Made by a program: the position numbers and the translations under genes. This document shows, piece by piece, positions 13,236-63,933 of a stretch of 64,000 bases of DNA. A model generated the notes under the pieces. That model had not been told where the DNA came from and ran no database searches. It saw nothing but the letters and a program-made list of their open reading frames with translations. Positions within the stretch are counted from its first letter, which is position 1, and every line of letters begins with the position of its first letter. Origin of the DNA: Haliotis rufescens (Eukaryota); assembly GCF_023055435.1 (NCBI RefSeq), contig NW_025963784.1:806001-870000 (forward strand), given 5' to 3'.

Positions 13236-13350
13236 GCTGCCTGTATCTATGACGTCTAGTGAGAAAATGAAACACACATGTGTATCCTTCAGTCGCCGCG
13301 ACTATATGACTCCTTAACAAAATTACATTAAACACATATAAATAGGGAAA

Positions 13351-13435
13351 GGGGATTCCCCCTACTTGCTGTGCGGGAAGTGTTGTATGCCACGTGAACA
13401 ATCTTGTTCCGGCTCTCGGACTGCGGATTTTAGGA
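13351..13435 (-). promoter_or_regulatory. DD4 promoter: kB site GGGGATTCCCC (13351-13361) and CGGATTTTAGGA (13424-13435)
   Basis: Positional conservation; the kB site is 116 bp upstream of the ATG. Confidence 0.6.
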
Positions 13436-15724
13436 TTTCATAAACCATTTCAATCTTGGGGTGTGTGTGGGTGAAATAGCAGTGTTGGTTTGAGTTGAAT
13501 CATCAGTATGCACATCGTGTGCAGTGATACTGGGGCGGTGGGTAGCCCAGCGGTTATAGAGTGTACGTGTAGGTTAAGGGGCACCCGGATATGTAATGAT
13601 ATTGGCACTTAATTTCTATCATTAATAATAGATCTGTTTTATTAAATGATCTATTTGTTTACTTTGAGCGTGTTGCTTTCATGAACTCATGAAAACATTT
13701 GCCTGTTGTTCTCAGCACACGTTTCTTATCATCCGAAAAAAACGACAGAACGTGTGTCAGGTATTGACATATTCATTCACTACACACTTGACTTCGCCAG
13801 GAGAGATATCGTCCGCCTGTCTATAAATAGGGATTGTCCCTGTCGCACAACTAATACGATCGAACCAATAGTGTACAAATAGTATCAAATTCGAGTTTCC
13901 AATACACAGAATGTAGGCCTCAAATGATGTAAGAGTTATCAGAGATTGTGGTGATGTGACCTGGCAGTCTAGCCAGCCTAGCGCTGTGTAATAGATATAT
14001 ATACGAGCCCAGTGTATGGTGTCTTGCTGTGTTATCGCCCTTCATGTAAAGGAAGTTTAGTGGGGATTACATTACAGGCCATGGCACATTTTTCAAAAGT
14101 TTGTATTTGAAATCAGGAATAAATTGATGATGCAAATGTATCAAATAAGATAATGAGGAAAAACACACCCGTACGCATAACGATACTATTCTAATACAGA
14201 ATAAATAAGGTGCTTTTTTTCAATGCAAACATACTCAAACAGTCGGTAGTTAATTTGGAGCAGTCAAAGCTCTATTAAGGATTTGGCTTACAGCCGTGCC
14301 TTGATGAAACTAATACGTAACACCTGATCACGAACTGCACATGCCCCTTTGACAACCATGGTACAGTGTTTGAACCGATCTAGGTCCGAAAATCCGACAA
14401 ACGTCAACGTTGCAAGGCTATAAATATATGTCACTACATGGATGCACATACCGGCGTATATACATTGTAGCAGTGACTGGCAAAAGGTTCGTTGGAGTTA
14501 TGATGTCACACTCAAGTGGTTTTCGTACACTGTGACACCGATTGAGGTTAAGATTAATGGTAGGGTTCCGTTCCACAATATATAATTGTCAATGCACGAG
14601 AATAAATAAATATATGAATGTACCACTGAAAATCAATGATGACACCAGGTGTTCGAGGAAAGGGTAAGCATGTCCTGTTCTACCGGTAGCACCCGTCATT
14701 CATACAAAGCGATCGTAGCACCAGGGCGACCGTAACTCCCACACTTTAGCATGGACCTACGACAGTCGTAGCGCTAAGATCGCTTAGGAAAACGGGGCCT
14801 GCGAAGCCATACACAATGTAAAGGCGTCATATGTGGACAATATTAAGCTGAACATTTCCGGCAGCTATGTTGTTTGGTTAATGTATGTGACAGCAGTGTG
14901 CATGCAGTATTCTTCCAGGGGGAGGTGTAACTGACAAGATTAACAGGTACTGCACATGGCATTTAATTTATTTCGCAATATCATTTAGTGGGCGAAAACG
15001 TCCTTAGAGTATTTAGGGCTGCATGTCATTGTGTGTGGGAAGGCGAAAATGGCATTTAACAACTGACTCAAAGAAGCAAACATCCACAAGAAAATAATTG
15101 ATTGCAATACTGTTTACGGTTCAGCTAAGATACTACTGCTGCATATTATGTCCAGGAAACTCATTGAATACAGTATTGTTACTCGCTATTTCAACGTTTT
15201 AGAGTTTCCCAAGTGTAAACTACCTAGATACTTGGCTTCATAACGCGATTGTTTACAGACCGCCGTTATAAAGCTGGAATATTGCTGAGTGTGACTTTAA
15301 ACAACAAACGAACGAACGATCGAGATCTACATCCATCTGGTCAACCCTGTCCACCCTGTCACCCACCGCAATTTACCCACTTACCTTTTAATTCAAATCG
15401 TCTAAGCCAGAGAATAACAGTCTCTCGTATGTGCCGAAACAGGTTCCACAGCGTGTAAATGCAAAATTGTGCAAATGATCAGAGACCAAATCAATCAGGT
15501 ATGACACCAGGTCCTCACGAAAGGGTAAACATGCCCTGCTGTATCTGTACAACCTCCTACTCACCTAACGCTGCACTAAAACAATACTTCTGCCACACGG
15601 CCCTATCACTAGACCGCCTCCGTGGTCTAGTGATAGAGCATCCACACGGAGAGCGGAAGGTCCGTGCACGTCGCTATATAAGTGCACTAAACTTAGACGT
15701 GACCTTAAACCCAATTTCCCTTCC

Positions 15725-16290
15725 CTTCAGGTCTATCTTCGTAAAAATTAAGGTCTACCTTCCCATTGAATGAGTCAGCAGCACTGGGTTCACAGTGACC
15801 TTAAAGTATCCACATAGCCTGACCTGGTCATGTTTTAACGATGAGAACGATGGGAGCGTCCAAATCACTGAGATCAAAGCTTGGATATGATACCAGACTG
15901 TTCAAAGTCTATCCAGATCAGCTTCAACATCCTCCTGGAGCGGATATGGCACATGTCTTGTCTTGAAGAATCTGGGTGCAGAATCATCTGGTAATTAGCC
16001 TTGAGGTGAGGTGAAATTGGGTTTAACGTCGCGTCCAAGATTATTGCACTTATATAGCGACGTGCATGTACGTGTGTGTGTGTGGCTGCTTGTACTAGTC
16101 CGGACTGATGCCGATTTATAGTGCTAGTTCACTGAGATACCATGCCGCAGTTTAACATGAATACCCCACTCAGACACAGTATACTGACTCCGAGCCGACC
16201 AGTCCTTGTTTTAGCCCCTAAATACATGGGTGCAGAATCATCTGGTACAACTAAATTTGCCTTGGCTTCATTCAACTTTACTAGTCTTTC
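15725..16290 (-). mobile_element. Decayed Gypsy-type LTR retrotransposon pol fragment (paralogue at ~51375-51785)
   Basis: Minus-strand translation gives PRFFKTRHVPYPLQEDVEADLDRL...VRLCGYFKVTVNPVL across frameshifts. It is interrupted by the SINE at 15994-16226. Confidence 0.7.
15994..16226 (-). mobile_element. 5'-truncated SINE with (TCACC)n tail, flanked by a 21-bp direct repeat
   Basis: TGGGTGCAGAATCATCTGGTA at 15973-15993 and 16227-16247. The 3' end is near-identical to the insert at 59125-59186. The copy in unit B (~51640-51724) is internally deleted. Confidence 0.75.
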
Positions 16291-16689
16291 CCTTCCGAGT
16301 CTTACTTAATCATTATCGTTTGGTCTAAAACGTCTTGAGTCTAAATATATTGACTCCAACTAACAACAAAAACACATATTTCATAAACAACCTGTGAAAT
16401 GTTTTATGAAATATTGATTTTTAGTTTACTTTTCATTTTTGAAAGTCAGATTGAAACAATTTCAATATCTAAGACAAAATTGTTATGGATGATATCAATA
16501 TCGAACAGAGTTGAAACAATATTGATACAATGTTTTTCAAGTAAGCAAACTCAGATCAACCAAATTTCAACTTTAGAACAATGACAATACTGGGATACTT
16601 CAACGGAGGAAGACATTATTAATTATAATTATCTGTGTAAGTTGGGGTACAGGTTATGAAAATTGTTAAAAAACATCCTCGGCGACGTG

Positions 16690-16781
16690 GAGTACAATGT
16701 GTGAAGCCAATTTCTGGTGTCCCCCGCCGTGATATTGCTGGAATATTGCTAAAGCGGCGTAAAACCATACTCACTCACTCA
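16690..16781 (+). mobile_element. SINE 3' fragment (family of 12765-12938); paralogue at ~52191-52285
   Basis: Reverse-complement match to the 12765 SINE, ending in ACTC repeats. Confidence 0.7.
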
Positions 16782-17559
16782 TTCTCTCAGTGAGCATAGG
16801 TTGAACCAGGCAATAAAGATCAACAGAGGTCATTGTTACAATATCAGAAACCTTTGAAAACAATAGGTTTCTAACTGAGTAACATTTCTCTACTCATGTT
16901 GCCAGACAACAATATTGTAATTTGTAATATTATGTTATATTTTGATCAAGACCTGATTTGAAACCACAATAAAGTATGTATATTAAGTGGATTCACCTGA
17001 TCACGAAGACTGACGCTTTTTTGGATTGTTACTCGGACATGTACAATGCTCATCTTGAAATATGGTCACACAGTGTACTGCAGAAATAATGCAGGGTAAT
17101 AACAAATATCATCATTTAACATCGTTTGGTAAAACGCGGCCGGGGCTCGAACCACCTATTTTCCGCTCTCCGGACAGACTCGCTTTATTTTCCCCGCAAG
17201 CCACACACAGAACAACAAACCAATAACAGAACGTCCCCTGCGGTACAAGGAGAGACGTTTATGAAGCCCTGAGGCGTTATAACAAGACCAACACTGATGC
17301 GTAGACAAATACAGGGTACATAATGAATATTCATGCTTGGGTGTAGTTCAGAATATAACCTTTTGTCATCTACAGGTTCAAGTGAACAACCGATTATTTA
17401 TCACGCCTGTGTGACTCATGTCACTATTAATAACTTTACAAAATGGCGCCTAATCCGAAACCACCCGAGCCTTACCTGACAGGGAGAACCTCAGCCCTTA
17501 AAGTGGAGGAGATTGTTAACATTCTGAGGAGTCCAGATGAGAGCAAGACCATCCAGACT

Positions 17560-17662
17560 GCCCCCCCCCACCCACCCCCCCCCACCCCCCCCCCACCCAC
17601 CCCACCCCCCCCCCCCCCCACCCACCCCACCCCCCCCCCCCCCCCCCCCCCACCCCCACCCC
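17560..17662 (+). repeat. Poly-C tract in exon 1 of copy A (frame-preserving, +87 nt relative to copy B)
   Basis: Copy B has GCCCCCGTCACACCCCAG (53064-53081) at this position. Confidence 0.8.
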
Positions 17663-20600
17663 AGGGAGGGGAGGTGTACCTCTATAAGATTACCTCGGGA
17701 ATGAGAGAAGGTGAGGCAGTTGTGTTCAGGCTTAATATACAGCGGGTCAGGGATTAATACATATGAACAATGTTAATATTTCATGGAAAGCTGATATTAT
17801 TTATTACACAATTTGAATTCATTGGGGTTGTTAAGTACACATGACCAATGTCCTCAAAGCCACATTCATATACATGTACGTTATCAGTAATAGTCTGCTT
17901 GACGTCGGGGTCACCCTGCCCTGGTATCAGCTTCCTTTTACAGCCCTGTGATAACCGCTTTTATGTTCGCTAACATTGTTGACAAGTGATTGTCGTGCAA
18001 ATAAGTGACTACGTGAATTAAGTTTATTTGTCTGTATCATCATCAAAACGACTTCTTTTACTTATGTTCTATCTTTGTTTTTCTATTTACTCTTTCCATC
18101 CCCTCTACAACAATTGTGTACTTAAATAATGAACATTGTTTGATGTCAACTTGTAGAAAATCCATTGTTGGATTAATCAATATGGGCTAAACAAGAATCA
18201 AGTATCGTGTTGCATCTCAGGGAAGGAGAAAAGGACATGGTATTTATCATCACAACCTCTAATACAACATATTTATGCATGACCTTACAGCTGATTTGGC
18301 ATTAAGGTGGGTTGATTTTAGAGTTATGTTACACTATTGACTGTTCACAGTTTTATTAATTAACATCTACATCACAGGTGACACACTAACAAACAAAGCT
18401 TTTTGAGGGATAGTTCATCTTCAGGATTACAACATTGTTTGCAATGTTATGATGTTAATTTCTATTTGCAGATATCTGGAAGGATGACAAATATCACTTC
18501 CGAAGTGATGGAACCCGGAAGCAGCCTGGCTCGAGTCCAGTCATAGTGAAGCAGTACCACAAGGCTTACACCGAGGACAAGACAACAACAAGGGCCTTTG
18601 TCAGAGAAGCATCGTATCTGTACAACCAGCCTCTGAAACACATCCTAGTGCAATATATCGGGGACCACACACAAGCACAGCCTGCTCCACAACGCAAGAA
18701 GCGTGGTCAACAGACAGTTAATACCTCAGGTGACAGTAAATGTAGGAAAGTAGAATCAACTGGTGGAGCTGTGCAGTCAGGTGTCACGGAGAACAGTAAC
18801 TCCAACCTGGACCCTGAAGATCATTCATCACCGACAGGATTGGAAGACAACGGTAAATCAAACACTATTCTAGGTGTAACATTGAATGGAGCAAAGGTGT
18901 CAGAGACAGAAACAAAGAATGATCACGGCACAAATCAGAAACGCTGCGGGACAGGAGATCATAGAAGTGATGATGACATTGAATATTTAGGTACAACGTC
19001 AGGCTCCCCTGTCAAGAAACCTCGTTTGCAGCCTCAAGTTGAAAATGACCACACAGTTGTAACCTGTGTCAATAACACACACTTTTCTTATCTGTACACG
19101 TTTCTAGAAGAAGTAGAAAGAAATCGTGATGTGATAAAGGTCGTGCAACAAGTCCTAGCATCATCTAGGTTCTGGAACAAGGACTGTACCAACAAAGGCA
19201 ATCCGTGCTTGTCACACATTGAAGAGGTCGACAAAAACTGGAATCTAGATTCAATAAAAGCAAGGAACTGGGTTAAATGTGCTGTTAATACTGACGGTCT
19301 GAGCTGGAACCAAGACCTGTCAGTTTACATAAAGCTCATCGCAGCAGTACTTGTTGGAGCATGCCATACCAGGACTGAAGTACAGGACTTTGTGAAAAAC
19401 ACTGAAGGATCCTCCTTCACACCTGCAGCATGTACAAGAGGACGTCCCCCTGTCACGTGACTGTACATACACAGTTGGCTGCTACATCATCAGAGGAGAT
19501 GTTCTGTCTCGCCTGGAAACCAACGAGTGGCTGACAGATGAAGTAAGTTGTCCACCTGCAATATTTACACAATCACACAAACTACGTGCCTAGTTAACCA
19601 TCCAAGAAAATCATTTCATAGAACATGAGAGGCCTTCGATTTCATCAAATGATGTCAGTATTAGATATTAACTGGGGGCGTGAGGGTGGTGAGTGGTTCA
19701 GTCACCTAATACTCATTGATAGTGCCTTGAGGTAGGCGAGCTAGAGCTTGAGTTTGGTTAAACGCCTCTTTTTGACAGTAGTGTCATGGTGCGTTGGATT
19801 AAGTTATGAAGAAAGTGATGCACATCTTTGACGTTAACCACTTTGTTGATTCCCATGGTGAATCTGCATAGCGAAATGCGGCGCCTTGGACCACTGAAAC
19901 CCCATCTTAAGATTAATACAGTAATTTTTGGCGGTTTCTTCTTTTTACACCAGTATTAGTTAACTATCAATTCATATAATGGTGCTAATTATCAACTCAT
20001 TGCAATGCATCTCGATTCTGCAATGATGACACTACTCACCTGCAATGGGCATTGTACACAAAATCTAGTACATCACGAGTCAAATTGTCAGTCATTGCTA
20101 ACAGCCGATATATTCTCTTCATGATGAATATGTGATGTGCAGCGGATCCTGCTTTGATTTGAAATTACAAGCGTTCCGTTTGAAGCGAAAGCATTGGGCG
20201 ATTAAACAGTATAATAAACATTCTAATAAATGAACTCTTTCCTGTCTAGATCATGGACTCATACCTGCACCTCCTGGAGGGAGAGTGGTGTTCCCGTGTC
20301 AGCTTCCACTGTCTGGTGCTGCCTACAGAGACAATCCTACTGTGGGAGGCAGGACAGTACACAGACAGAATAAGGGGGAAAGATGTGAGTGACGTGAGAT
20401 TTTTATATTTCTTATAATTCTTTCATTCCGAGTGCACCATTGCATGTCCACCCTACCATGAACAAGGTCAAGACTCGAAAGATATTTTGCAGTAATTGTA
20501 TATTTTTTGTGATAACATATGATTCGTCTATGCCATGATTGCGTATTCAGTATGCTAGAAGTTATCACTTGCAATTGTGCGCACGAAGCGACCATATGCT

Positions 20601-23527
20601 GCAATGGGTTTCAATTGAGTCAAAGCCAGTAACCCCATTGATCCCATAATGCTATTCGTTTTCAATATGCAGTTGCAAAAGCAGATATTGCACAAGAACA
20701 TATTCGTCTTGCTACATATTACTTTACGAAGTGAAAATCTGGTTGTCAGAGAGGGGTCTTTAGAAGTTCTAAGTTCCAAGTTCATGATACCAATTCACTA
20801 ATATCTCTGTTACTGCATCATATCCAGCTTATGTGAAGCACGTGTTTCTTGATATATTGATCGTACACCGGAAAGGCATTTGTTTTTGAACTTACAGGAA
20901 AATTTGACAAACTACACGTGGATCTTAATGCCAGTGAACATGCCACGTAATCAACATTGGGTGCTACTGGTGGCTAATGTCAAGGATGGAACAGTGGGCG
21001 TGGTTAATTCTAAACCCTCCTTAGATGTGGAGGACAAGGTTGTACAACACTGGAGGTAGGTAGACAGAACAGTGGGCGTGGTCAATTCTAAACCCGCCTT
21101 ATATGTAGAACTCCCATTTGTACAACACTAGAGGTAGATAAAAGACAGGACGTGTGGCTGCACATTATAAATGTTAAAACCAAGCTATCCAATTTGAAAT
21201 GTTGAAATGTTGATTTCTCAAAAACAAACATGAATGTAAAAAAGATCCATCGAAAAATGTTCGATACACCCACATTTGTAGCTTTTACTTTTGGGTAGAA
21301 GATATAGAACAATCTGTTCACAGGGTTACCCAGTTCCCCAAATTGGTACACTGTGTGAATGATTTAAACGCCATAAATACAGTTATGTCACTCATTCATT
21401 TAAACCATAACATCTGTATTTGCTAACATAAAACCTAATTATGGACAAAGCAGGAGAGAACATCAGAAATGCCAGGACAGGATATTTTAGGCACTGCTGT
21501 ATTTACCTTCTTTTCTACCTTTACTTTAACACCAGTCCACATGAGTTGAAGACTTTATCGCCATCGAGTAATATACATGTATTCCTCAGGCTCTTTGTAA
21601 ACTACTTGAAATCTACGTCTAAGGAAGGGAGCAAGTTATGGATGAAGAAACAGTACCCAGTGATAGAACAGTCTGATGGACACAGCTGTGGGATATTCGT
21701 TCTGATGGTAGGTTGGTTTGAAGCTATGTTTTTTATATGAAAGGCAACATGTGTCTCAATAACCACGTATGAAAGATAGCTTTTCATTTCTAACTTTCAT
21801 ATTCTCAGGCTGCTGATGCAATTTTCTCGGAGAAGTCTCCAGGCATCATGAGGAACTGTCACGTTGAGAAATACAGGCTGTATGTACTTCAGAGGATACT
21901 ACAGTATGCCAAGGTCAAGGGAGATATGCAAGGTGGAGGAAATCACATCATGGCAGTTGATGGACTCGGTAATGACAAACACAAAATTCAAACTTCCATG
22001 CTGGGGACAACAGATGTACTGGAAAATAGCTGTTCAATGACAACAGAACAAGGAGGTCCAACTATTCATGAAGGAACCGACTGTGCTATCGCCAGTGATG
22101 AAAGTATGCATTCTGGAGATCATTACTATGTAACGTAATTGTAAGGCGTTACGGAAGGTATTATACTTTAGATCTATATATGCAATGGTGTATACTCCTT
22201 TCATACAAACGGTATTTGTTTTTACAGATACTGATGACCACCCATGTTTGGATCAGCACCTGTTGCATAAGCAGAAGATGGCGTGCTTGTTAGTGGTTGC
22301 TTTGGCGGAGAATAACCTGGAGGAGAGGATGCTATGGGCAGGGTCTGACACAGGGACTCGCGTGGAAAGAGAAACCTACAAAAAATATATTGTTTGGGCA
22401 CTTAAGGCTTTTGACATCAATGAAGAAGAATACACTGAAAATGTGATGAAACATATTCTATCCCAATTGACGGGATGCTGTCTCCATCATGAAGCAGGCT
22501 CATATAGAATAAGAAATCATAAAGTAGCAATAAAGCTAAGAGAAATACTGCTACGTGATGTTAGGCAGTTGGTTGAAAGGATGGATATCGAGTTCATATT
22601 TCGTTATGTGACATTTAGAGATGATCCAACTGAAGACGAACAACTAAATGTGTCTTTCAACCTCGAATTGAAACATGATGATCTGCATATTGTAGCGAAG
22701 CGGTTTGCTACAGCTTTACACGGCAGAAAGTTTGCCTTTGTGTGCATGCATTCCCTATTCAAGGTAGAGACATTTGTTGATATGGTTTGGGAGAAATTGT
22801 TGCATAATATGAACAAGGACAGTTGTGTACTGTTGAAAGTATTGTCAAATAATGACATTGTACATGGATATTCCTTTCTGTTTTGGGCGAGCATCACAGA
22901 CAACTCACATTTGTTGAGGAGAGCATTGTTCAGTGTTCAAATGAATGCAGAGAACAGAAAGGAAGCTTTGTTTGGAAGTTGCTTTGGGAATAGTTTAGCC
23001 AACTTCGATTACCTGTTTTCCAATAAAAACTGGAAGTTGGATAAGTTGTGGATGACACTACCCAAACTCCCAAGACCTCTTATCATTAAACTGCAGTTGG
23101 CAGTTGCAGATGATCTGGGAGTAAAGTTTGGTAAATGTTCACTTTTGCCTGTATGGGTGGGTTGTCTGCAGTGGCTTCCAGATTGTCACATTTGATAAAG
23201 ATGAGCAAGAAGAAATACAGGTCAAGAAAGAATACATATGTACATTTTGCATCCTTGTGTCTAAAGGGCAAAGATACCATGGATACAATTAGAAAAATTG
23301 GAAAACTGAATGTCAATATAAAAGGCCCTGAAGGATCAACACCTTTACATTACGCATGTGCAGTTGGAAATGTTAGCATTGTAAGCTATCTGTTACAGGA
23401 ACGAGTGGACATTGGTGAGCAAAACAAGAAGGGTGAAACTGGGCTTCATTTGGCATGTATATATGGAAACGCAGAAGTTGTTACAATGTTATTACAGAAC
23501 AAGGGAATAATTCATGTGAAAGATAAT

Positions 23528-25010
23528 GCTGGCCGCACACCTCTACATGATGCAGCCTGGCAGGGGCACAGGGAGGTTGTGGAGGTGTTATTACAGAACA
23601 AGGCAAATGTTTATGAGAAACGTGTTAATGGCAGCACACCTCTACATGATGCAGCCTGGCAGGGGCACAGGGAGGTTGTGGAGGTGTTATTACAGAACAA
23701 GGCAAATGTTTATGAGAAACGTGATGATGGCCGCACACCTCTACATCTTGCAGCCTACCAGGGACATAGGGTGGTGTGGAGGTGTTATTACAGAACAAGG
23801 CAAATGTGAATGAGAAAGATAAGGAAGGCGGCACACCTCTACATGATGCAGCCTGGCAGGGGCACAGGGAGGTTGTGGAGGTGTTATTACAGAACAAGGC
23901 AAATGTTTATGAGAAAGATAAGGAAGGCGGCACACCTCTACATCTTGCAGCCAGCCAGGGACATAGGGAGGTTGTGGAGGTGTTATTACAGAACAAGGCA
24001 AATGTTTATGAGAAAGATAAGGAAGGCGGCACACCTCTACATCATGCAGCCTGGCAAGGACATAGGGAGGTCGTGGAGGTGTTATTACAGAACAAGGCAA
24101 ATGTGAATGAGAAAGATAAGGAAGGCGGCACACCTCTACATGATGCAGCCAGCCAGGGACATAGGGAGGTTGTGGAGGTGTTATTACAGAACAAGGCAAA
24201 TGTTTATGAGAAACGTGTTAATGGCAGCACACCTCTACATGATGCAGCCTGGCAGGGGCATAGGGAGGTTGTGGAGGTGTTATTACAGAACAAGGCAAAT
24301 GTTTATGAGAAACGTGTTAATGGCAGCACACCTCTACATGATGCAGCCTGGCAGGGGCACAGGGAGGTTGTGGAGGTGTTATTACAGAACAAGGCAAATG
24401 TGGATGAGAAACGTGATGATGGCAGCACACCTCTACATCTTGCAGCCTACCAGGGACATAGGGAGGTTGTGGAGATGTTATTACAGAACAAGGCAAATGT
24501 TTATGAGAAACGTGTTAATGGCAGCACACCTCTACATGATGCAGCCTGGCAGGGGCACAGGGAGGTTGTGGAAGTGTTATTACAGAAAAAGGCAAATGTT
24601 TATGAGAAAGATAAGGAAGGCCGCACACCTCTACATCATGCAGCCTACCAGGGACATAGGGAGGTTGTGGAGGTGTTATTACAGAACAAGGCAAATGTGG
24701 ATGAGAAACGTGATGATGGCAGCACACCTCTACATCTTGCAGCCTACCAGGGACATAGGGAGGTTGTGGAGATGTTATTACAGAACAAGGCAAATGTTTA
24801 TGAGAAACGTGTTAATGGCAGCACACCTCTACATGATGCAGCCTGGCAGGGGCACAGGGAGGTTGTGGAAGTGTTATTACAGAAAAAGGCAAATGTTTAT
24901 GAGAAAGATAAGGAAGGCGGCACACCTCTACATCATGCAGCCAGCCAGGGACATAGGGAGGTTGTGGAGGTGTTATTACAGAACAAGGCAAATGTGGATG
25001 AGAAAGACGA
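23528..25010 (+). repeat. Tandem 99-bp ankyrin array, about 15 units, with a 297-bp higher-order duplication
   Basis: Repeating GxTPLHxAAxQGHREVVEVLLQNKANVxEK. A block near 24515 recurs 297 bp later. Confidence 0.9.
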
Positions 25011-25310
25011 TAAAGAAGAAACTGCTTTACAAAAAGCAGAGGCACAACATCACAATGATATTGCAAGGATTATAACTGAGGCAACAAATATACATGACCT
25101 GACAACCAACCATGGTACAATTATAGATAGGTAAGAGCAATGTGGAAATGATGCTTTAGTTGACAACCCAAACACATATATTGTATACGCTGTTTTGCAG
25201 AACAGTTTTGAAACCCTACGAAATCATATGAGACCTCGAAGAGGACAGTACCATCAGACATTTATCAAAATATCTATCATTTATCTAAGAATATAGACAG
25301 AGCATTTCTA

Positions 25311-25796
25311 TAAGGCCCCCCAAACAACATACTAAAAGTCCCAAATCAATCAATCAAATATGTCATGAGAGACCAACAGTGTATTGATATTGAATGTCTG
25401 TCCATGTCTTGGAGGTCATCTTGGAATTTTGGGCCAGTCAGTTAGTGTGACAAGTTTTATGCACATACGTCCAAGCACACTGTTTCAGATATAAATCTTC
25501 AACAGTCTAAACTCATATTTAGGAAAGTGTCGGCCATCTTGAAATTGCCGGCCATCTTGATGTTTTATAGATTTGTCAATAGTCGAAAACGATCAATAGT
25601 TGTGAATATCATTTTAAAACCATAATATGACTATTTTGCAACAGAACAAATGCTGTTTTTCATCAAAACATTGAACCTCATCTGAAATGTTGAAAATACT
25701 ATTGACAGTTTGTTGCCATATTGGATTATGTAAATTAGACATATTTCCCAAACTGGGATTGCTTGGGACTTTAAGTATGTTGTTTTGGGGACCTTG
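25311..25796. mobile_element. MITE / non-autonomous DNA transposon in the last intron
   Basis: TIRs of about 33 bp (AAGG(C/T)CCCCAAA(A)CAACATACT(A/T)AAAGTCCCAA) flanked by TA. An internally deleted paralogue lies at 62918-63191. Confidence 0.75.
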
Positions 25797-27539
25797 TAGA
25801 CATGCATTGTGGTGAGATGAACTTTATTGCTATTTGTTCCAAGGGAAACCTTATTTTCCATGGGCTACATATGTCAACGGGGACTTGCAAAAACGCTGAA
25901 ATTATGTTAACCAATATTTGAACTTAATTAGGCTTCACTGTGTATACTATTGAATGATTTCGCTGGAGGCTTTTACATCTTGATTTTGTATTATATGTCA
26001 CAATAGCATCACTATTTTGATTAAGTCCTATTTTCTCTGAAATGTTGTGTCAAGTGCATGTGGTATTGTTTCAGGGTGACAACCGATGGCCAGTTTCTTA
26101 TGAAATCATCGTCAGTTCCACATGGAAGCTATAACAATGGCGGTTTGCTTACATCCACACCACCAACATCAACGTGCCCCGTGAACCACGCATCAATAGA
26201 ATTGCCAGGGGTTTATGTTCCGAGTCAACTGGGACAAGCAGTTTCCACAGACAGACAAAGTGTTATTGAAGAGATCGCTTTGCAGTCATCCCAACCATAT
26301 CATATAGACGGAAATCTTAACAACCTCCATACAGATCCTGCACGCATGGAGATACGTTCACCCAATCAAAGAACAGAAGCTATATATGGAAACTCAAGTC
26401 ATGTTCCCACCTGTGTCCATGCTCCAGTAGTTGGTGACACAGTGCCTAGTTCAGATAACACTAGTAATTCTGAGAATGTCATCATTCACTACACTGAGTC
26501 TGGGGAAAAGATAGAGCTGCAGCAGCTCTAAAAGTGGTCTAGAAAGGAGTTATCATTGATAGTATGGTGTACAGTGATACAGTATACATATACAGTTTTA
26601 CAACCTCCTTCAGGAGTCAGTCGTCCGAATTTGGTTTGCAGAAAAAAACGAGTTATTTGTCACTTGTGTCGATGTAGCATTGATGTTTCGGTTAGCATAT
26701 CAATTCCATAAAAAGCAAACATTTTACTCTACAGATGCTAGGACCATAGCTTACTTCATGACGAAAAAATCCTCTATATTGCTTAGAGGATTACATAATA
26801 GATTCTTTCAAATGTTCCTAACTGGACATATGCGTATTTCAGTGTGAACCGAACTTTCCTTAGGCATTGTGTTAAGTTGAATCGAGTGAGTGTGTGAGTT
26901 GGATTTAACGCTGCTTTTAACAGTTTTCAAGTTATATCACTGCGTGACAGCTTAATGTGGGAGGAAAGCCCGAAGTGATGCAGGTCTCAGACGTTTACCA
27001 TTTCGGTGATTTGTGTCAATGTAGTTTTGACGTTTCTGTTTGCATCTCGATTCCATAAAAAAACCATTGTACGTTACAAATTCTAGGAACATGGCTAACT
27101 TTAATGTTTAGAAGATTACATAACAGTTTCTTACAAATGTTTATAACTGAACATATGCAGATTTCAGTGTGTTCCAAACTTTCTTAAAGCAAAGTATTTT
27201 GTTGAAATTACGGGAGTGAGTTAAGATTGACGTACACAATGAATGTTTGCAGCTACATGTCGCTGTGTAAAATATGTACTTGCAGGAACACGTGGGTGTC
27301 TTTCTATCATAGTCGGTATTGTCACTTTGATTTGTTTCTGCACCATTTCCAGTGTCAGAGTTGTGAAGTCTCACTCCCAAAACGAAGCCATGTAACCTGT
27401 TGCAATATAGACTTTAAAGTACGTTCACGGTGACCTCATATTCAGGAATATAATGACTGTTTTTGTAAAACGATTCGTCGTGAAGCACCACTTTAGATTA
27501 GATTGTAGCTAAATATGGTGTACACAGTTTTATTTATAT

Positions 27540-52946: not shown

Positions 52947-55900
52947 ATGGCGCCTAATCCGAAACCACCCGAGCCTTACCTGACAGGGAGAACCTCAGCC
53001 CTTAAAGTGGAGGAGATTGTTAACATTCTGAGGAGTCCAGATGAGAGCAATACCATCCAGACTGCCCCCGTCACACCCCAGGGAGGGGAGGTGTACCTCT
53101 ATAAGATAACCTCGGGAATGAGAGAAGGTGAGGCAGTTGTGTTCAGGCTCAATATACCGCGGGTAAGGGATTAATACATATGAACAATGTTAATATTTCA
53201 TGGAAAGCTGTTATTATTTATTAAACAATTTGAATTCAAAGGGTTTGTTATGCACACATGACCAATGTCCTCAAAAGCCACATTCATATACATGTACGTT
53301 ATTAGTAATAGTCTGCTTGACGTCGGGGTCACCCTGCCCTGGTATCAGCTTCCTTGTACAGCCCTGTGATAACAGATTTTATGTTCGTTAATATTGTTGA
53401 CAAGTGATTGTCATGCAATAAGTGACTACGTGAATTAAGTTTATTTGTCTATATCATTGTTTAAAACGACTTCTTTTGCAAAATGTTCTATCTTTGTTTT
53501 TCTTTTCACTCTTTCCATCCCCTTTACAACAATTGTGTACTTAAATAATGAACATTGTTTGATGTCAACTTATAGAAAATCCATTGTTGGATTAATCAAT
53601 ATGGGCTAAACAAGAATCAAGTATCGTGTTGCATCTCAGGGAAGGAGAAAAGGACATGGTATTTATCATCACAACCTCTAATACAACATATTTATGCATG
53701 ACCTTACAGCTGATTTGGCATTAAGGTGGGTTGATTTTAGAGTTATGTTGCACTATTGACTGTTCACAGTTTTATTAATTAACATCTACATCACAGGTGA
53801 CACACTAACACACAAAGAATTTTGGGGGATAGTTCATCTTCAGGATTACAACATTGTTTGCAATGTTATGATATTAATTTCTATTTGCAGATATCTGGAA
53901 GGATGACAAATATCACTTCAGAAGTGATGGAACTCGGAAGCAGCCTGGCTCAAGTCCAGTCATAGTGAAGCAGTACCACAAGGCTAACACCGAGGACAAG
54001 ACAACAACAAGGGCCTTTGTCAGAGAAGCATCGTATCTGTACAACCAGCCTCTGAAACACGTTCTAATGCAATATATCGGGGACCACACACAAGCACAGC
54101 CTGCTCCCCAACGCAAGAAGCGTGGCCAACAGACAGTTAATACCTCAGGTGACAGTAAATGTAGGAAAGTAGAATCAACTGGTGGAGCTGTGCAGTCAGG
54201 TGTCACGGAGAACACTAACTCCAACCTGGACCCTGAAGATCATTCATCACCGACAGAATTGGAAGACAATGGTAAATCAAACAGTATTCTAGGTGTAACA
54301 TTGAATGGAGCAAAGGTGTCAGAGACTGAAACAAAGAATGATCACGACACAAATCAGAAACGCTGCAGGACAGGAGATCATAGAAGTGATGATGACATTG
54401 AATATTTGGGTACAACGTCAGGCTCCCCTGTCAAGAAACCTCGTTTGCACCCTCAAGTTGAAAATGACAACACAGTTTTAACCTTTGTCAATAACACACA
54501 CTATTCTTATCTGTACACTTTTCTAGAAGAAGTAGAAAGAAATCGTGATGTGATAAAGGTCGTGCAACAAGTCCTAGCATTATCTAGGTGCTGGAACAAG
54601 GACTGTACCAACAAAGGCAATCCGTGCTTCTCACTCATTGAAGAGGTTGACAAAAACTGGAATCTAGATTCAATAAAAGCAAGGAACTTGGTTAAATGTG
54701 CTGTTAATACTGACGGTCTGAGCTGGAACCAAGACCGGTCAGTTTACATAAACCTCATCGCAGCAGTACTTGTTGGAGCATGCCATACCAGGACTGAAGT
54801 ACAGGACTTTGTGAAAACACTGAAGGATCCTCCTTCACACCTGCAGCATGTACAAGAGGACGTCCCCCTGTCACGTGAATGTACATACACAGTTGGCTGC
54901 TACACCATCAGAGGAGATGTTCTGTCTCGCCTGGAAACCAACGAGTGGCTGACAGATGAAGTAAGTTGTCCACCTGCAATATTTGCACAATCACACAAAC
55001 TACGTGCCTAGTTAACCATCCAAGAAAATCATTTCATAGAGCATGAGAGGCTTTCGATTTCATCAAATGATGTCAGTATTAGATATTAACTGGGGGCGTG
55101 AGGGTGGTGAGTGGTTCAGTCACCTAATACTCATTGATAGTGCCTTGAGGTAGGGGAGCTTGAGCTTGAGTTTGGTTAAACGCCTCTTTTTGACAGTAGT
55201 GTCATGGTGAGTTTGATTAAATTCTGAAGAAAGTGATGCACATCTTTGACGTTAACCACTTTGTTGATTCCCATGGTGAATCTGCATAGCGAAATGCGGC
55301 GCCTTGGACCACTGAGACCCCATCTTAAGATTAATACAGTAACTTTTGGCGGTTTCTTCTTTTTACACCAGTATTAGTTAACTATCAATTCATATAATGG
55401 TGCTTATTATCAACTCATTGCCATGCATCTCGATTCTGCAATGATAACACTACTCACCTGCAATGGGCATTGTACACAAAATCTAGTACATCACCAGTCA
55501 AATTGTCAGTCATTGCTAACAGCCGATATATTCTCTTCATGATAAATATGTGATGTGCAGCGGATCCTGCTTTGATTTGAAATTACAAGCGTTCCTTTTG
55601 AAGCAAACGCATTGGGCGATTAAACAGTATAATAAACATTCTAATAAATGAACTCTTTCCTGTCCAGATCATGGACACATACCTGCACCTCCTGGAGGGA
55701 GAGTGGTGTTCCCGTGTCAGCTTCCACTGTCTGGTGCTGCCTACAGAGACAATCCTACTGTGGGAGGCAGGACAGTACACAGACAGAATAAGGGGGAAAG
55801 ATGTGAGTGACGTGAGATTTTTATATTTCTTATAATTCTTTCATTCCGAGTGTACTATTGCATGTCCACCATACCATGAACAAGGGCAAGACTCGAAATA

Positions 55901-58900
55901 TATTTTGCAGTAGTTGTATATTTTTTGTGATAACATATGATTCGTCTATGCCATGATTGCGTATTCAGTATGCTAGAAGTTGTCACTTGCAATTGTGCGC
56001 ACGAAGCGACCATATGCTGCAATGGGTTTCAATTGAGTCAAAGCCAGTAACCCCATTGATCATAATGCTATTCGTTTTCAATATGCAGTTACAAAAGCAG
56101 ATATTGCACATGAACATATTCGTCTTGCTACATATTATTTTACGAAGTGAAAATCTGGTTGTCAGAGAGAGGTCTTTAGAAGTTCTAAGTTCCAAGTTCA
56201 TGATACCAATTCACTAATATCTCTGTTACTGCATCATATCCATCTTATGTGAAGCACGTGTTTCTTGATATATTGATCATACACCGGAAAGGCATTTGTT
56301 GTGAACTTTCAGGAAAATTTGACAAACTACACGTGGATCTTAATGCCAGTGAACATGCCACGTAATCAACATTGGGTGCTACTGGTGGCTAATGTCAAGG
56401 ATGGAACAGTGGGCGTGGTTAATTCTAAACCCTCCTTAGATGTGGAGGACAAAGTTGTAGAACACTGGAGGTAGGTGGACAGAACAGTGGGCGTGGTCAA
56501 TTCTAAACCCGCCTTAGATGTAGAAGACCCATTCGTACAACACTAGAGGTAGATACAAAAAACAAAGAGGACGTGTGGCTGCACATTATAAATGTTAAAA
56601 CCAAGCTATCCAATTTGAAATGTTGAAATGTTGATTTGTCAAAAACAAACATGAATGTAAATAAGACCCATCGAAAAATTCTCGATACACTCACATTTGT
56701 AGCTTTTACTTTTGGGTAGAAGATATAGAACAACTTGTTCACAGGGTTACTCAGTTCCCCAGATGGGTACACTGTGTGAATGATTATAACGCCATAAATA
56801 CAGTTATGTCACTGATTCATTTCAACCATAACATCTGTATTTGCTAACATTAAACCTAATGGTGGACAAAGCAGGAGAGAATATCAGAAATGCAAGGACC
56901 GGATATTTTAGACACTGCTGTATTTACCTTCTGCTCTACTTTTACTTTAACACCAGTCCACATGAGTTGAAGATGTTATTGCCATCGAGTAATATACATG
57001 TATTCCTCAGGCTCTTTGTAAACCACTTGAAATCTACGTCTAAGGAATGGAGCAAGTCATGGATGAAGAAACAGTACCCAGTGATAGAACAGTCTGATGG
57101 ACACAGCTGTGGGATATTCGTTCTGATGGTAGGTTGGTTTGAAGCTATGTTTTTGATATGAAAGGCAACATGTGTCTCAAAAACCACGTATGAAAGATAC
57201 CTTTTCATTTCTAACCTTCATATTCTCAGGCTGCTGATGCAATTTTGTCGGAGACGTCTCCAAGCATCATGAGGAACTGTCACGTAGAGAAATACAGGCT
57301 GTATGTGCTTCAGAGGATACTACAGTATGCCAAGGCCAAGGGAGATATGCAGGGTGGAGGAAATCACATGATGGCAGTTGATGGACAGAGTAATGTCACA
57401 AACGAAATTCAAACTGTAACGCTGGAGACAAGAGATGTACTGGAAAATATCTGTACAATATCAACAGAGCAAGGAGGTCCAACTATTCATGAAGAGGATG
57501 GACATGAAACACATGAAGGAACCGACTCTGCTGTCGCCAGTGATGAAAGTATGCATTCTGGAGATCATTACTATGTTACGGAATTGTAAGTCGTTACGCA
57601 AGGTATTATATTTTAAATCTACATGTGCAATGTTGTACACTGCTTTCTAACAAACGCTATTTGTTTTCACAGATACAGAGGACTATCCATGTTTGGATCA
57701 GCACTTGTTGCATAAGCAGGAGATGGCGTGCATGTTAGTGGTTGCTTTGGCGGAGAATAACCTGGAGGAGAGGATGCTATGGGCAGGGTCTGACACAGGG
57801 ACTCGCGTGGAAAGAGAAACCTACAAAAAATATATTGTTTGGGCACTTAAGGCTTTTGACATCAATGAAAAAGAATACACTGAAAATGTGATGAAACCTA
57901 TTTTATCCCAATTAACGGGATGCTGTCTCCATCATGAAGCAGGCTCATATAGAATAAGAAATCATAAAGTAGCAATAAAGCTAAGAGAAATACTGCTACG
58001 TGATGTTAGGCAGTTGGTTGAAAGGATGGATCTCGAGTTCATATTTCGTTATGTGACATTTAGAGATGATCCAACTGAAGAGGAACAACTAAATGTGTCT
58101 TTCAACCTCGAATTGAAACATGATGATCTGCATATTGTAGCGAAGCGGTTTGCTACAGCTTTACACGGCAGAAAGTTTGCCTTTGTGTGCATGCATTCCC
58201 TATTCCAGGTAGAGACATTTGTTGATATGGTTTGGGAGAAATTGTTGCATAATATGAACAAGGACAGTTCTGTACTGTTGAAAGTATTGTCAAATAATGA
58301 CATTGTACATGGATATTCCTTTCTGTTTTGGGCGAGCATCACAGACAACTCACATTTGTTGAGGAGAGCATTGTTCAGTGTTCAATTGAATGCAGAGAAC
58401 AGAAAGGAAGCTTTGTTTGGAAGTTGCTTTGGGAATAGTTTGGCCAACTTCGATTACTTGTTTTCCAATAAAAACTGGAAGTTGGATAAGTTGTGGATGA
58501 CACTACCCAAACTCCCAAGACCTCTTATCATTAAACTGCAGTTGGCAGTTGCAGATGATCTGGGAGAAAAGTTTGGTAAATGTTCACTTTTGGACATTGC
58601 CTGTATGGGTGGGTTGTCTGCAGTGGCTTCCAGATTGTCACATTTGATAAAGATGAGCAAGAAGAAAAACAGGTCAAGAAAGAATACATATGTACATTTT
58701 GCATCCTTGTGCCTAAAGGGCAAAGATACCATGGATACAAGTACAAAAATTGGAAAACTGAATGTCAATATAAAAGGCCCTGAAGGATCAACACCTTTAC
58801 ATTACGCATGTGCAGTTGGAAATGTTAGCATTGTAAGCTATCTGTTACAGGAAGTAGTGGACATTGGTGAGCAAAACAAGAAGGGTGAAACTGGGCTTCA

Positions 58901-61900
58901 TTTGGCATGTATATATGGAAACGCAGAAGTTGTTACAATGTTATTAAAGAACAAGGGAATAATTCATGTGAAAGATAATGCTGGCCGCACACCTCTACAT
59001 GATGCATCCAGGCAGGGACATAGGGAGGTTGTGGAGGTGTTATTACAGAACAAGACAAATGTGGATGAGAAAGATAAGGAAGGCCGCACACCTCTACATG
59101 ATGCATCCTGGCAGGGACATAAGGTGAGGTGAGGTGAAATGGGGTTTAACGTCGCGTCCAAGATTATTGCACTTATATAGCGACGTCAGGGACATAAGGA
59201 GGTTGTGGAGCAGTTATTACTGAACAAGGCAAATGTGAATGAGAAACGTCGAGATGGCAGCACACCTCTACATGATGCAGCCTTGCAGGGACATAGAGAG
59301 GTTGTGGAGGTGTTATTACAGAACAAGGCAAATGTGGATGAGAAACATCAAGAAGGCAGCACACCTCTACATGATGCATCCTGGCAGGGACATAGGGAGG
59401 TTGTGGAGGTGTTATTACAGAACAAGGCAAATATGGATGAGAAAGATCAAGAAGGCAGCACACCTCTACATCTTGCAGCCTACCAGGGACATAGGGAGGT
59501 TGTGGAGGTGTTATTACAGAACAAGGCAAATGTGCATGAGAAACGTAATGATGGCTGCACACCTCTACATAATGCAGCCTACCAGGGACATCGGGAGATT
59601 GTGGAGGTGTTATTACAGAACAAGGCAAATGTGGATGAGAAACATCAAGAAGGCAGCACATCTCTACATCTTGCAGCCTACCAGGGACATAGGGAGGTTG
59701 TGGAGGTGTTATTACAGAACAAGGCAAATGTGAATGAGAAACGTAATGATGGCCGCTCACCTCTACATCATGTGGCCTACCACGGACACAGGGAGGTTGT
59801 GGAGGTGTTATTACAGAACAAGACAAATGCATATGAGAAAGATAAGGAAGGCCGCACACCTCTACATGATGCAGCCTGGCAGGGACACAGGGAGGCTGTG
59901 GATGTGTTATTACAGAACAAGGCAAATGTGGATGACAAACGTGATGATGGCCGCACACCTCTACATCTTGCAGCCTCCCACGGACATAGGGATGTTGTGG
60001 AGTTGTTACTACAGAACAAGGCAAATGTGGATGAGAAACGTCAAGATGGCAGCACATCTCTACATGATGCAGGCTACCGGGGACATAGGGAGGTTGTGGA
60101 GTTGTTATTACAGAACAAGGCAAATGTGAATGAAAAACGTAATGGTGGCCGCACACCTCTACATCATGCAGCCAACCAGGGACACAGGGAGGTTGTGGAG
60201 GTGTTATTACAGAACAAGACAAATGTAGATAAGAAAGATAAGGAAGGCCGCACACCTCTACATGATGCAGCCTGGCAGGGACACAGGGAGGTTGTGGATG
60301 TGTTATTACGGAACAAGGCAAATGTGGATGACAAACGTGATGATGGCCGCACATCTCTACATGATGCAGCCTACCGGGGACATAGGGAGGTTGTGGAGGT
60401 GTTATTACAGAACAAGGCAAATGTGAATGAGAAACGTAATGATGGCACCACACCTCTACATCGTGCAGCCTACCAGGGACATAGGGAGGTTGTGGAGTTG
60501 TTATTACAGAACAAGGCAAATGTGGATGAGAAACATCAAGAAGGCAGCACACCTCTACATCTTGCAGCCTCCCACGGACATAGGGAGGTTGTGGAGTTGT
60601 TATTACAGAACAAGGCAAATGTGGATGAGAAAGATAAGGAAGGCCGCACACCTCTACATCGTGCAGCCTGGCAAGGACATCGGGTGGTTGTGGATGTGTT
60701 ATTACGGAACAAGGCAAATGTGGATGACAAACGTGATGATGGCCGCACACCTTTACATGATGCAGCCAGGCAGGGACACAGGGAGGTTGTGGAGGTGTTA
60801 TTACAGAACAAGGCAAATGTGGATGGGAAAGATAAGGAAGGCCGCACACCTCTACATCTTGCAGCCTCCCACGGACATAGGGAGGTTGTGGAGTTGTTAT
60901 TACAGAACAAGGCAAATGTGGATGAGAAAGATAAGGAAGGCCGCACCCCTGTACATCGTGCAGCCTGGCAAGGACATCGGGTGGTTGTGGATGTGTTATT
61001 ACGGAACAAGGCAAATGTGGATGACAAACGTGATGATGGCCGCACACCTTTACATGATGCAGCCAGGCAGGGACACAGGGAGGTTGTGGAGGTGTTATTA
61101 CAGAACAAGGCAAATGTGGATGGGAAAGATAAGGAAGGCCACACACCTCTACATCTTGCAGCCTCCCACGGACATAGGGAGGTTGTGGAGTTGTTATTAC
61201 AGAACAAGGCAAATGTGGATGAGAAAGATAAGGAAGGCCGCACACCTCTACATCGTGCAGCCTGGCAAGGACATCGGGTGGTTGTGGAGGTGTTTTTACA
61301 GAACAAGGCAAATGTGGATGAGAAACGTGAAGGTGGCAGCACACCTCTACATCTTGCAGCCTACCAGGGACATTGGATCGTTGTGGAGTTGTTATTACAG
61401 AACAAGGCAAATGTGGATGAGAAAGATAAGGAAGGCCGCACACCTCTACATCGTGCAGCCTGGCAAGGACATCGGGTGGTTGTGGATGTGTTATTACGGA
61501 ACAAGGCAAATGTGGATGACAAACGTGATGATGGCCGCACACCTTTACATGATGCAGCCAGGCAGGGACACAGGGAGGTTGTGGAGGTGTTATTACAGAA
61601 CAAGGCAAATGTGGATGGGAAAGATAAGGAAGGCCGCACACCTCTACATCTTGCAGCCTCCCACGGACATAGGGAGGTTGTGGAGTTGTTATTACAGAAC
61701 AAGGCAAATGTGGATGAGAAAGATAAGGAAGGCCGCACCCCTGTACATCGTGCAGCCTGGCAAGGACATCGGGTGGTTGTGGATGTGTTATTACGGAACA
61801 AGGCAAATGTGGATGACAAACGTGATGATGGCCGCACACCTTTACATGATGCAGCCAGGCAGGGACACAGGGAGGTTGTGGAGGTGTTATTACAGAACAA

Positions 61901-63933
61901 GGCAAATGTGGATGGGAAAGATAAGGAAGGCCACACACCTCTACATCTTGCAGCCTCCCACGGACATAGGGAGGTTGTGGAGTTGTTATTACAGAACAAG
62001 GCAAATGTGGATGAGAAAGATAAGGAAGGCCGCACACCTCTACATCGTGCAGCCTGGCAAGGACATCGGGTGGTTGTGGAGGTGTTTTTACAGAACAAGG
62101 CAAATGTGGATGAGAAACGTGAAGGTGGCAGCACACCTCTACATCTTGCAGCCTACCAGGGACATTGGATCGTTGTGGAGTTGTTATTACAGAACAAGGC
62201 AAATGTGGATGAGAAAGATAAGGAAGGCCGCACACCTCTACATCGTGCAGCCTCCCACGCACATAGGGAGGTTGTGGAGTTGTTATTACAGAACAAGGCA
62301 AATGTGGATGAGAAAGATAAGGAAGGCCGCACACCTCTACATCGTGCAGCCTGGCAAGGACATCGGGTGGTTGTGGAGGTGTTATTACAGAACAAGGCAA
62401 ATGTGGATGAGAAACGTCAAGATGGCAGCACACCTCTACATCTTGCAGCCTACCAGGGACATCGGGTGGTTGTGGAGGTGTTATTACAGAACAAGGCCAA
62501 TTTGGATGAGAAACGTCAAGATGGCAGCACACCTCTACATGATGCAGCCTGGCAGGGACATAGGAAGGTTGTGGAGTTGTTATTACAGAACAAGGCAAAT
62601 GTTTATGAGAAAGACGATAAAGAAGAAACTGCTTTACAAAAAGCAGAGGCGCAACATCACGATGATATCGCAAGGATTATAACTGAGGCAACAACTTTAC
62701 ATGACCTGACAACCAACCATGGTACAATTATAGATAAGTAAGAGCAATGTGGAAATCATGCTTGAGTTGACAGCCCAAACACATATATTGTATACGCTGT
62801 TTTGCAGAACAGTTTTGAAATCTCACGAAACCATATGAGACCTCGAAGAGGACAGTACCATCAGACATTTATCAAAATATCTATCATTTATCTAAGAATA
62901 TAGACAGAGCATTTCTACAAGGCCCCCCAAACAACATACTAAAAGTCCCAAATCAATCAATCAAATATGTCATGAGAGACCAACAGTGTATTGATATTGA
63001 ATGTCTCTCCATGTCTTGGAGGTCATCTTGGAATTTTGGGCCAGTCAGTTAGTGTGACAAGTTTTATGCAAATACGTCCCAGCACACTGTTTCAGAGATA
63101 AAAGCTTCAACAGTCTAAACTTATGTAAATTAGACATATTTCCCAAACTGGGATTGCTTGGGACTTTAAGTATGTTGTTTTGGGGACCTTGTAGACATGC
63201 ATTGTGGTGAGATGAACTCTATTGCTATTTGTTCCAAGTGAAACCTTATTTTCCATGGGCTACATATGTCAATGGGGACTTTGCAAAAACGCTAAAATTA
63301 TGTTAACCAATATTTGAACTTAATTAGGCTTCACTGTGTATACTATTGAATGATTTCGCTGGAACCTTTTACATCTTGATTTTGTATTATATATCACAAT
63401 AGCATCATTATTTTGATTAAGTCCTATTTTCTCTGAATTACTGTGTCAAGTGCATGTGATATTGTTTCAGGGTGACAACCGATGGCCAGTTTCTTATGAA
63501 ATCATCGTCAATTCCACACGGAAGCTATAACAATGGCGGTTGGCTTACATCCACACCACTAACATCAACGTGCCCAGTGAACCAGACATCAGTAGAACTG
63601 CCAGGGGTGTATGTTCCGGGCCAACTAGGACAGGCAGTTTCCACAGACAGACAAAGTGTTATGGAAGAGAGATACATCGCCTTGAAGTCATCCCAACCAT
63701 ATCATATAGACGGAAATCTTAACAACCTCCTTACAGATCCTGCACGCTTGGAGATACGTTCACCCAATCAAAGATCAGAAACCATATATGGAATCTCAAG
63801 TCATGTTCCCACCTATGTCCATGCTCCAGTAGTTGGTGACACATTGCCTAGTTCAGATGCCACTAGTAATTCTGAGAATGTCATCATTCACTACACTGAG
63901 TCTGGGGAAATGATAGAGCTGCAGCAGCTCTAA
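52947..63933 (+). CDS. CG-1-like / Ulp1(C48) protease / ankyrin-repeat protein, copy B (exons 52947-53127, 53891-54960, 55668-55802, 56313-56470, 57011-57128, 57230-57548, 57673-62737, 63471-63933; about 2477 aa if 59124-59198 is spliced out)
   Basis: All introns are GT-AG with compatible phases; the exon 6 donor is the least certain. Motifs: EEIVNIL..P.TPQGGEVYLY..WKDDKYHF..FVREASYL..LMQYIGD (CG-1-like); WLTDE, QHWVLLV, VVNS, EQSDGHSCG (C48 peptidase); TPLHxAAxxGH repeats. The only stop lies inside the insertion, at 59130-59132. Confidence 0.75.
58982..62620 (+). repeat. Tandem 99-bp ankyrin array, about 36 units, with 297-bp and 792-bp higher-order duplications
   Basis: Same consensus as the copy A array. 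An 8-repeat block ending GHWIVVE recurs at a 792-bp offset (for example 61342 and 62134). Confidence 0.9.
59125..59186 (-). mobile_element. 62-bp SINE 3'-end insertion in the ankyrin exon, with 13-bp TSD
   Basis: CAGGGACATAAGG is duplicated at 59112-59124 and 59187-59199. The insert matches ~16003-16063. Confidence 0.9.

Follow-up and report, generated by a model that had tools for sequence, protein, structure and literature searches.

We examined a 64,000-nucleotide stretch of Haliotis rufescens DNA (contig NW_025963784.1 of assembly GCF_023055435.1, positions 806,001 to 870,000 of the forward strand), hereafter called the window. The window consists of two copies of a large segment, at about 1343-26598 and 33706-64000, which align in blocks of 88-97% identity, are separated by an N gap and end near N gaps or beyond the window edge. 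Each segment carries one copy of a gene in which a Ulp1/SENP-type protease domain is followed by a long array of near-identical ankyrin repeats (copies A and B; Table 1). A first-pass annotation of this DNA had described the arrays as natural counterparts of designed ankyrin repeat proteins (DARPins) and had overlooked the gene to which array B belongs, the eight-exon LOC125377905 (52947-63933), whose 3' part the array forms. The joined exons of copy B up to an insertion in the second array unit are identical to the H. rufescens protein XP_048247946.1 at 1144 of 1144 residues.

The gene and its family

The encoded protein begins with a weak CG-1 match, followed by a linker that carries two basic clusters, a Peptidase_C48 domain, an acidic linker, a helical domain, two divergent ankyrins, the array and a tail, the last of which recurs in P0002, P0004, P0018 and P0019. 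The Peptidase_C48 match lies above the Pfam cut-off (E 3.5e-12 for the family protein P0022), and the protease of the homolog P0006 aligns to SENP1 at E 3.5e-4 with matching His, Gln and Cys. All 23 family proteins that span both the catalytic His and the catalytic Cys motif retain them, together with an Asn in 21 of them and a Ser in two. His-Asn-Cys triads occur in some bacterial clan CE enzymes. At a mean difference of 4%, the protease is the most conserved region, the others differing by 7-13%. The CG-1 match reaches E 0.032 in copy B and E 7e-4 to 7e-5 on whole homologs, where it covers profile positions 7-114 of 116 and scores 19.7-23.0 bits, below the Pfam cut-off of 23.5. Pfam Ank matches 34 times in 59190-62738. 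Hydropathy gave neither a signal peptide nor a membrane segment in the six subfamily members tested.

The helical domain has four relatives among 1.84 billion representatives, all of them from Haliotis. The Atlas leads from it to WHD_GPIID, the winged helix that precedes the ankyrins in fungal NLRs, at 0.82-0.83, below 0.9. Its structural models are of low confidence, with mean predicted local distance difference test scores (pLDDT) of 37 and 42 and a helix-hairpin-helix at pLDDT <50; they returned no Foldseek match at E up to 0.001, and a sequence search of the PDB gave one chance match only. The domain could possibly combine a winged helix with degenerate ankyrins.

All homologs come from Haliotis. 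The same layout is found in more than 12 gene models of H. rufescens and in two H. cracherodii proteins of 2079 and 2310 aa, both of them uninterrupted; uninterrupted models hold 1, 7, 24 and 31 array units, and the family ranges from 1 to about 36, the window copies having 15 and 36. A distant subfamily (H. rufescens LOC124124203, P0010; H. rubra LOC124268339, P0031), whose middle domain is 23-26% identical, likewise has protease, helical domain and ankyrins in this order but a near-identical repeat block of a different kind, which suggests that the design is older than the array of the window copies. In P0010 (residues about 1500-2190) and in P0031, this ankyrin block has hairpins of variable length with runs of Asp, Gly and Ala, and LOC124124203 has six annotated isoforms of unequal length. 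In two other H. rufescens proteins, P0007 and P0008, the array joins the helical domain early, without the lead ankyrins or most of the domain, by what may be internal deletions or prediction errors. Automatic homolog names (ankyrin-3-like, phosphatase 6 subunit-like, latrocrustotoxin-like) mirror only the repeats.

Our literature survey, which covered few subscription papers, returned no description of the abalone family or of a layout with a protease and without a nucleoside triphosphatase (NTPase). The available portion of the main text of PMC13229213 mentions no ANK, SENP or NLR, and PMC3169594, on a nematode gene named Cg-1, proved irrelevant.

Spliced transcripts of the copy B gene or of a close relative exist. 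We compared reads with 52900-59300 of copy B, a range that ends before exon 8, and took three runs as RNA by spliced joints missing from a DNA-like run, no run being recorded as RNA. Five of the six tested introns have GT-AG joints in all three RNA-like runs, which come from three studies, and the sixth, after exon 4, is spliced in one of them; none of these introns is spliced in the DNA-like run. Contigs from the RNA-like runs differ from copy B by about 2.3% in exon 2 and by less than 1% in exon 7; what is expressed may therefore be a different allele or a close paralog. Among 40 of the 373 read rows, those listed, there are 20 exonic differences from copy B, 11 of them residue-changing. Both gene copies also carry a 78-bp tandem duplication (56404-56552 in B, 20989-21137 in A), which repeats the last part of protease exon 4, donor site included, in the next intron.

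Table 1. Coordinates of the gene copies, their exons and arrays, and related features in the window
Feature	Position	Strand	Evidence or remark
Duplicated segment, first copy	1343..26598	+	88-97% identical in blocks to 33706-64000; N gap at 33549-33700 in between
Copy A, whole gene	17443..26531	+	frameshifts at about 19395 (+1), 23145 (-7) and 23770 (-1); C-rich run 17566-17656 in exon 1
Array A, 15 units of 99 bp	23513..24996	+	
Copy B exon 1: start codon, first half of CG-1-like domain	52947..53127	+	joint in 3 of 3 RNA-like runs, not in the DNA-like run
Copy B exon 2: CG-1-like remainder, linker with two basic clusters, protease start	53891..54960	+	read joints; GT-AG ends
Copy B exon 3: protease domain	55668..55802	+	read joints
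Copy B exon 4: Ulp1/C48, catalytic His, Asn for the usual Asp	56313..56470	+	Peptidase_C48 E 2.9e-5; P0006-SENP1 alignment
Copy B exon 5: protease, oxyanion Gln and catalytic Cys	57011..57128	+	read joints; SENP1 alignment; family comparison
Copy B exon 6: protease end, acidic linker	57230..57548	+	read joints
Copy B exon 7: helical domain, two divergent lead ankyrins, 36-unit array, capping repeat	57673..62737	+	open reading frame, Pfam, joints
Helical domain, about 340 aa, mostly helical	57705..58730	+	no Pfam match
Array B, 36 units of 99 bp, variable at 1, 2, 3, 5, 10, 13, (14)	58965..62603	+	
75-nt insertion in array B unit 2	59124..59198	-	62-bp 3' end of a high-copy retroposon-like repeat
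Exact 874-bp duplication, lag 8 units (792 bp)	60588..62253	+	copies from 60588 and 61380
Copy B exon 8: low-complexity C-terminal tail	63471..63933	+	splicing inferred: GT-AG ends keep the frame

Variable positions and reshuffling of the ankyrin units

We numbered the repeats with the T of TPLH as position 6, in accordance with the capping sequence given in PMC4308713. The unit counts, 36 in array B and 15 in array A, are those that the first-pass annotation had estimated. Units B1 and A1 at the array boundaries, the interrupted B2 and the frameshifted A3 were omitted and identical units were collapsed, leaving 25 distinct units of 34 in B and 11 of 13 in A, with mean nucleotide identities of 87% and 90%, respectively. 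Variation among them is not uniform across codons and is concentrated at binding-surface positions, which confirms what the annotation had described. The six classic DARPin positions, which we take to be 2, 3, 5, 13, 14 and 33, hold 39% of the amino-acid entropy in B and 55% in A; in an exact permutation over all 1,107,568 six-position sets, these shares correspond to p 0.0026 and 0.0028. The set as a whole is enriched, with the qualifications that position 33 is invariant and that positions 1 and 10, which lie outside the set, vary strongly. The near-constant scaffold claimed for both arrays fits A and is less apt for B, in which positions 14, 18, 22, 31 and 32 are moderately variable.

When A and B are ranked together by entropy, the top five positions are 2, 10, 13, 5 and 3. 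The same five lead among 142 distinct units pooled from A, B and 13 homologous proteins of two abalone species: position 13 (2.43 bits), 2 (2.30), 10 (2.30), 5 (2.05) and 3 (1.57), followed by 18, 14, 1 and 31, with p = 179/1,107,568 for the pooled units. These family statistics are at the protein level, and the unit finder used for the homologs skips units with insertions or deletions, which makes its counts slightly low. The residue menus at the variable positions are small, with 6-12 residues, of which 2-4 are common. Positions 2, 3, 5, 10 and 13 are also the five randomised in the ANK-N5C library (PMC4308713), a better-fitting set that was taken from the paper after the entropies were known.

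As the annotation had noted, A and B use different variant sets: they have no identical unit in common, and none of the eight binding-face codes of A is among the 21 of B. Across ten arrays with at least six distinct units each, we counted 105 binding-face codes, of which 10 are shared by two or more arrays. H. rufescens and H. cracherodii have several hairpin and helix-1 variants in common, and these modules shared across species suggest that array diversity arises largely by reassorting old variants. The repeat shuffling postulated earlier was also evident within the arrays. Of the informative site pairs, 129 of 351 in B and 59 of 136 in A have all four gametes, giving minimum numbers of recombination intervals within 99 bp of 10 and 3, which recurrent mutation can inflate. 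Besides the exact 874-bp block, which could be recent or an assembly error, there are exact matches at a lag of three units, 189 bp long in B and 261 bp in A. Concerted evolution is evident within each array: no A unit is closer to a B unit than it is to the most similar A unit. Long open reading frames in other frames across the arrays are shadows of the repeat and were set aside.

Diversity at the binding face and damage to the copies

At the target codons, that is those of the binding face, nonsynonymous diversity (pN) is 0.28-0.35 compared with a synonymous diversity (pS) of 0.10-0.11 over the whole unit, a ratio of 2.7-3.4. Diversity at first and second codon positions is 0.33 at target codons and 0.076 at four-fold silent sites. 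Seven positions that are variable but non-binding according to PMC4308713 have a diversity of 0.069 and are as quiet as silent sites. Per-site rank tests gave p 0.0006-0.025, values that are too optimistic in that linked sites are treated as independent. Transversions make up 15 of the 26 minor alleles at target codons, and CpG decay therefore does not explain these variants. In neutral coalescent simulations with linked or freely recombining sites, the observed ratio was reached in 17-45 of 700 runs across 12 settings, in which pS was slightly low; in a recalibrated set of eight settings, half of them with six-fold CpG mutation, it was reached in 8-18 of 500.

Array B is interrupted in unit 2 by a short insertion (Table 1), its 62-bp retroposon-like part lying between direct repeats of 12-13 bp (59112-59123 and 59187-59198). 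The repeat from which it derives is high-copy, with very high read depth and unrelated flanks in four runs. The window holds a 98% identical copy at 16002-16063; others lie at 15668-15721, 51314-51365 and 28077-28112, the four being 83-98% identical to the insertion repeat. With the insertion removed, the frame of copy B is open for 2477 codons, and XP_048247946.1 passes straight through the site. On the + strand the insertion begins with GT and ends with AG, ends that were formed together with its target duplication, and its exact splicing would restore the frame, so that it is possibly an intron in the making. The RefSeq protein may pass through because the insertion is spliced, was modelled as an intron or is missing from the source; the joint that would remove it is not among the 15 of 17 joints listed, and no listed contig bridges it. 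In exon 1 of copy A, the C-rich run adds a net 87 bases in frame and is probably low-quality sequence.

A predicted recognition surface and its alternatives

We favour, with moderate confidence, a reading in which the two copies belong to a tandem family that combines a Ulp1/SENP-type protease with a long ankyrin array as a predicted variable binding surface, likely in intracellular defence. In this reading, the scaffold would be kept uniform by unequal crossover and gene conversion, which would also reassort old variants of the hairpin and helix 1, and selection would maintain the diversity of binding-face codons. The protein would be soluble and probably nuclear, and its array would present a long composite face to a foreign or selfish target, ligand recognition being predicted from the position of the variable residues only. 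The protease, either alone or freed from autoinhibition, would strip SUMO or another ubiquitin-like tag, or would signal on binding, and gene birth and death would drive the turnover of the family. The likeliest role is defence, judging from the analogy with fungal receptors of high internal conservation (HIC) and from the expanded, defence-linked ankyrin genes of abalone (PMC12627906). A bolder version, which we regard as doubtful, would make the protein an intracellular immune receptor without an NTPase: natural DARPins would form a germline library that is reshuffled below the level of the repeat over a tandem cluster and wired directly to a deSUMOylase or deubiquitinase, and would give each animal its own repertoire of proteases targeting pathogen or transposon proteins.

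The closest likeness is to the fungal HIC NLRs (Dyrka et al. 2014, PMC4986451; Ament-Velasquez and Saupe 2026, PMC13449251), which have units more than 85% alike that vary in number and are shuffled, residues of the ankyrin hairpin and inner helix that vary and are apparently under selection, and an enzyme domain on the N-terminal side. The HIC threshold is about 85% identity over at least 100 aa, and the nucleotide identities of the abalone arrays lie above it (87% in B, 90% in A); the hypervariable sites, positions 2, 3, 5, 10 and 13, fall on the concave face, a placement taken from PMC4308713 and not from a model of the array. In contrast to the fungal receptors, the abalone gene is an animal gene without NACHT, NB-ARC or another NTPase, its Ulp1/C48 protease is preceded by a CG-1-like domain, its variation in repeat number is known between paralogs and species, and its sensor role is proposed by analogy. 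Near-identical repeats with a hypervariable binding face are rare in animals, metazoans holding 0.8% of them (PMC4986451), and HIC NLRs occur in animals too (PMC13449251). With designed ankyrins (ANK-N5C, PMC4308713; DARPins, PMC8683736) the array has in common a constant 33-residue frame and, for ANK-N5C, the same five positions; it differs in being natural, in drawing on recombined small menus, in its invariant position 33 and variable position 1, in its up to 36 units and in that binding is predicted. Like the Ulp1/SENP C48 proteases, including the transposon-borne Kaonashi ULP-like enzymes (PMC6117577), the protease has a C48 match and the His, Gln and Cys of SENP1, but it has Asn for Asp and a fused variable ankyrin array, and no transposase was found with it. 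Abalone genomes have been reported to include a chromosome on which duplicated ankyrin genes are enriched, and a role in defence is discussed for them (PMC12627906, citing Picone 2015 and Shiel 2017 for the expansion and its tie to defence); the available text reports domain enrichment only, and neither a protease-ankyrin family nor variation at the level of the repeat. The repeat behaviour is already known from fungal NLRs, and what appears to be new is the protease-ankyrin family of an animal: near-identical molluscan repeats with a hypervariable face, in a large cluster, with a ubiquitin-like protease in the place of the NTPase. Evolution has here arrived at the same five positions that protein engineers randomise, and the family is a testable candidate for diversified intracellular recognition in long-lived invertebrates without antibodies, in a genus that is farmed and hit by disease.

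Several observations weigh against this reading. Both copies are damaged: the unit-2 insertion is in frame and brings two stops, copy A has three frameshifts, one of them in array unit 3 (the first-pass annotation had overlooked this frameshift and the insertion), derived residues number 24 in B and 38 in A, and divergence between the A and B exons outside the array is almost neutral, with a pN/pS of 0.91 (90/2685 vs 29/789). Copy B looks like a decaying copy, and A and B look like dying family members. At nine of ten testable amino-acid differences, the reads carry the family residue and not that of B; no read bridges array B or its insertion, the contigs ending at the array. The tests of selection draw on about 21 silent sites per unit and are only moderately significant against the neutral simulations (P 0.016-0.064), pN/pS at scaffold codons is 0.7-1.0 in B (0.14-0.44 in A), and natural ankyrins are most variable at the same positions (PMC4308713). 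An Asn sits where SENP1 has its catalytic Asp. No Pfam NTPase (NACHT, NB-ARC, nSTAND) was found in the family proteins, and a Walker A motif is absent from seven of eight, the lone match lying in a linker of P0010 and not recurring in P0031; without an NTPase there is no NLR switch, and the family proteins are therefore not NLRs.

Much of this would follow if there were no diversifying selection at all, concerted evolution homogenising the units while neutral changes pile up at tolerated positions of a fold formerly protected by purifying selection, in copies that decay; the locus would then be an ordinary decaying repeat gene. We consider this unlikely. The near-neutral exons, the breakage of both copies, the many partial or truncated gene models in the family, the shared variable positions of unrelated natural ankyrins (PMC4308713) and the 2-6% of neutral simulations that attain the observed ratio are all in its favour, but in both arrays the diversity of target codons is about four times that of silent sites and of tolerant non-binding positions, the variants are multi-nucleotide blocks beside invariant silent sites, and the same pattern holds in 10 arrays of two species. 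Support for diversifying selection at binding-face codons, as claimed in the first-pass annotation, is consistent but moderate, being tempered by the simulation probabilities, the few silent sites, the broken copies and the near-neutral exons. CG-1-like heads occur on animal Mutator-like transposases. Together with the weak CG-1 match, the basic clusters, the repeat-rich duplicated segment around the gene and the C48 proteases carried by plant Mutator-like element (MULE) transposons (PMC6117577), they lend some appeal to a domesticated, transposon-derived nuclear protein, in which the CG-1-like domain would bind DNA, the protease would edit chromatin SUMO and the array would track endogenous partners such as transposon proteins rather than pathogens, or to the gene as cargo of a mobile unit. 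This explanation is rather improbable given that no transposase domain occurs in any family member (no Pfam match to a MULE or DDE transposase in the family proteins or in the scanned subset of window open reading frames), that querying with the CG-1-like region of P0010, a weak test, brought up no relative among 317 candidates, and that the gene has seven introns. Assembly error could account for part of the picture, with A and B as unmerged haplotypes and the eight-unit duplication, the C-run and some frameshifts as artefacts. Such an error would suit the N gap between the copies, the exactness of the 874-bp duplication, the low-quality look of the C-rich run and a RefSeq model that is identical to B and stops after three array units. 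We think it very unlikely, however: A and B introns differ by 3-12%, no array unit is common to both, many long-array paralogs are found in other assemblies, and only distinct units entered every statistic. Because of this intron divergence and the many neighbouring paralogs listed in other assemblies, A and B are more likely to be tandem paralogs than two haplotypes.

An Rfam scan of 49000-64000 gave no match. A 4.2-kb element at 44985-49212, present in the copy B segment only, contains a gag-like open reading frame (45329-46600) with a weak CCCH zinc finger, a reverse transcriptase (46353-48035, E 4e-14) and a GDSL/SGNH hydrolase (48184-48543, E 7e-4), and resembles a DIRS/Ngaro retrotransposon.

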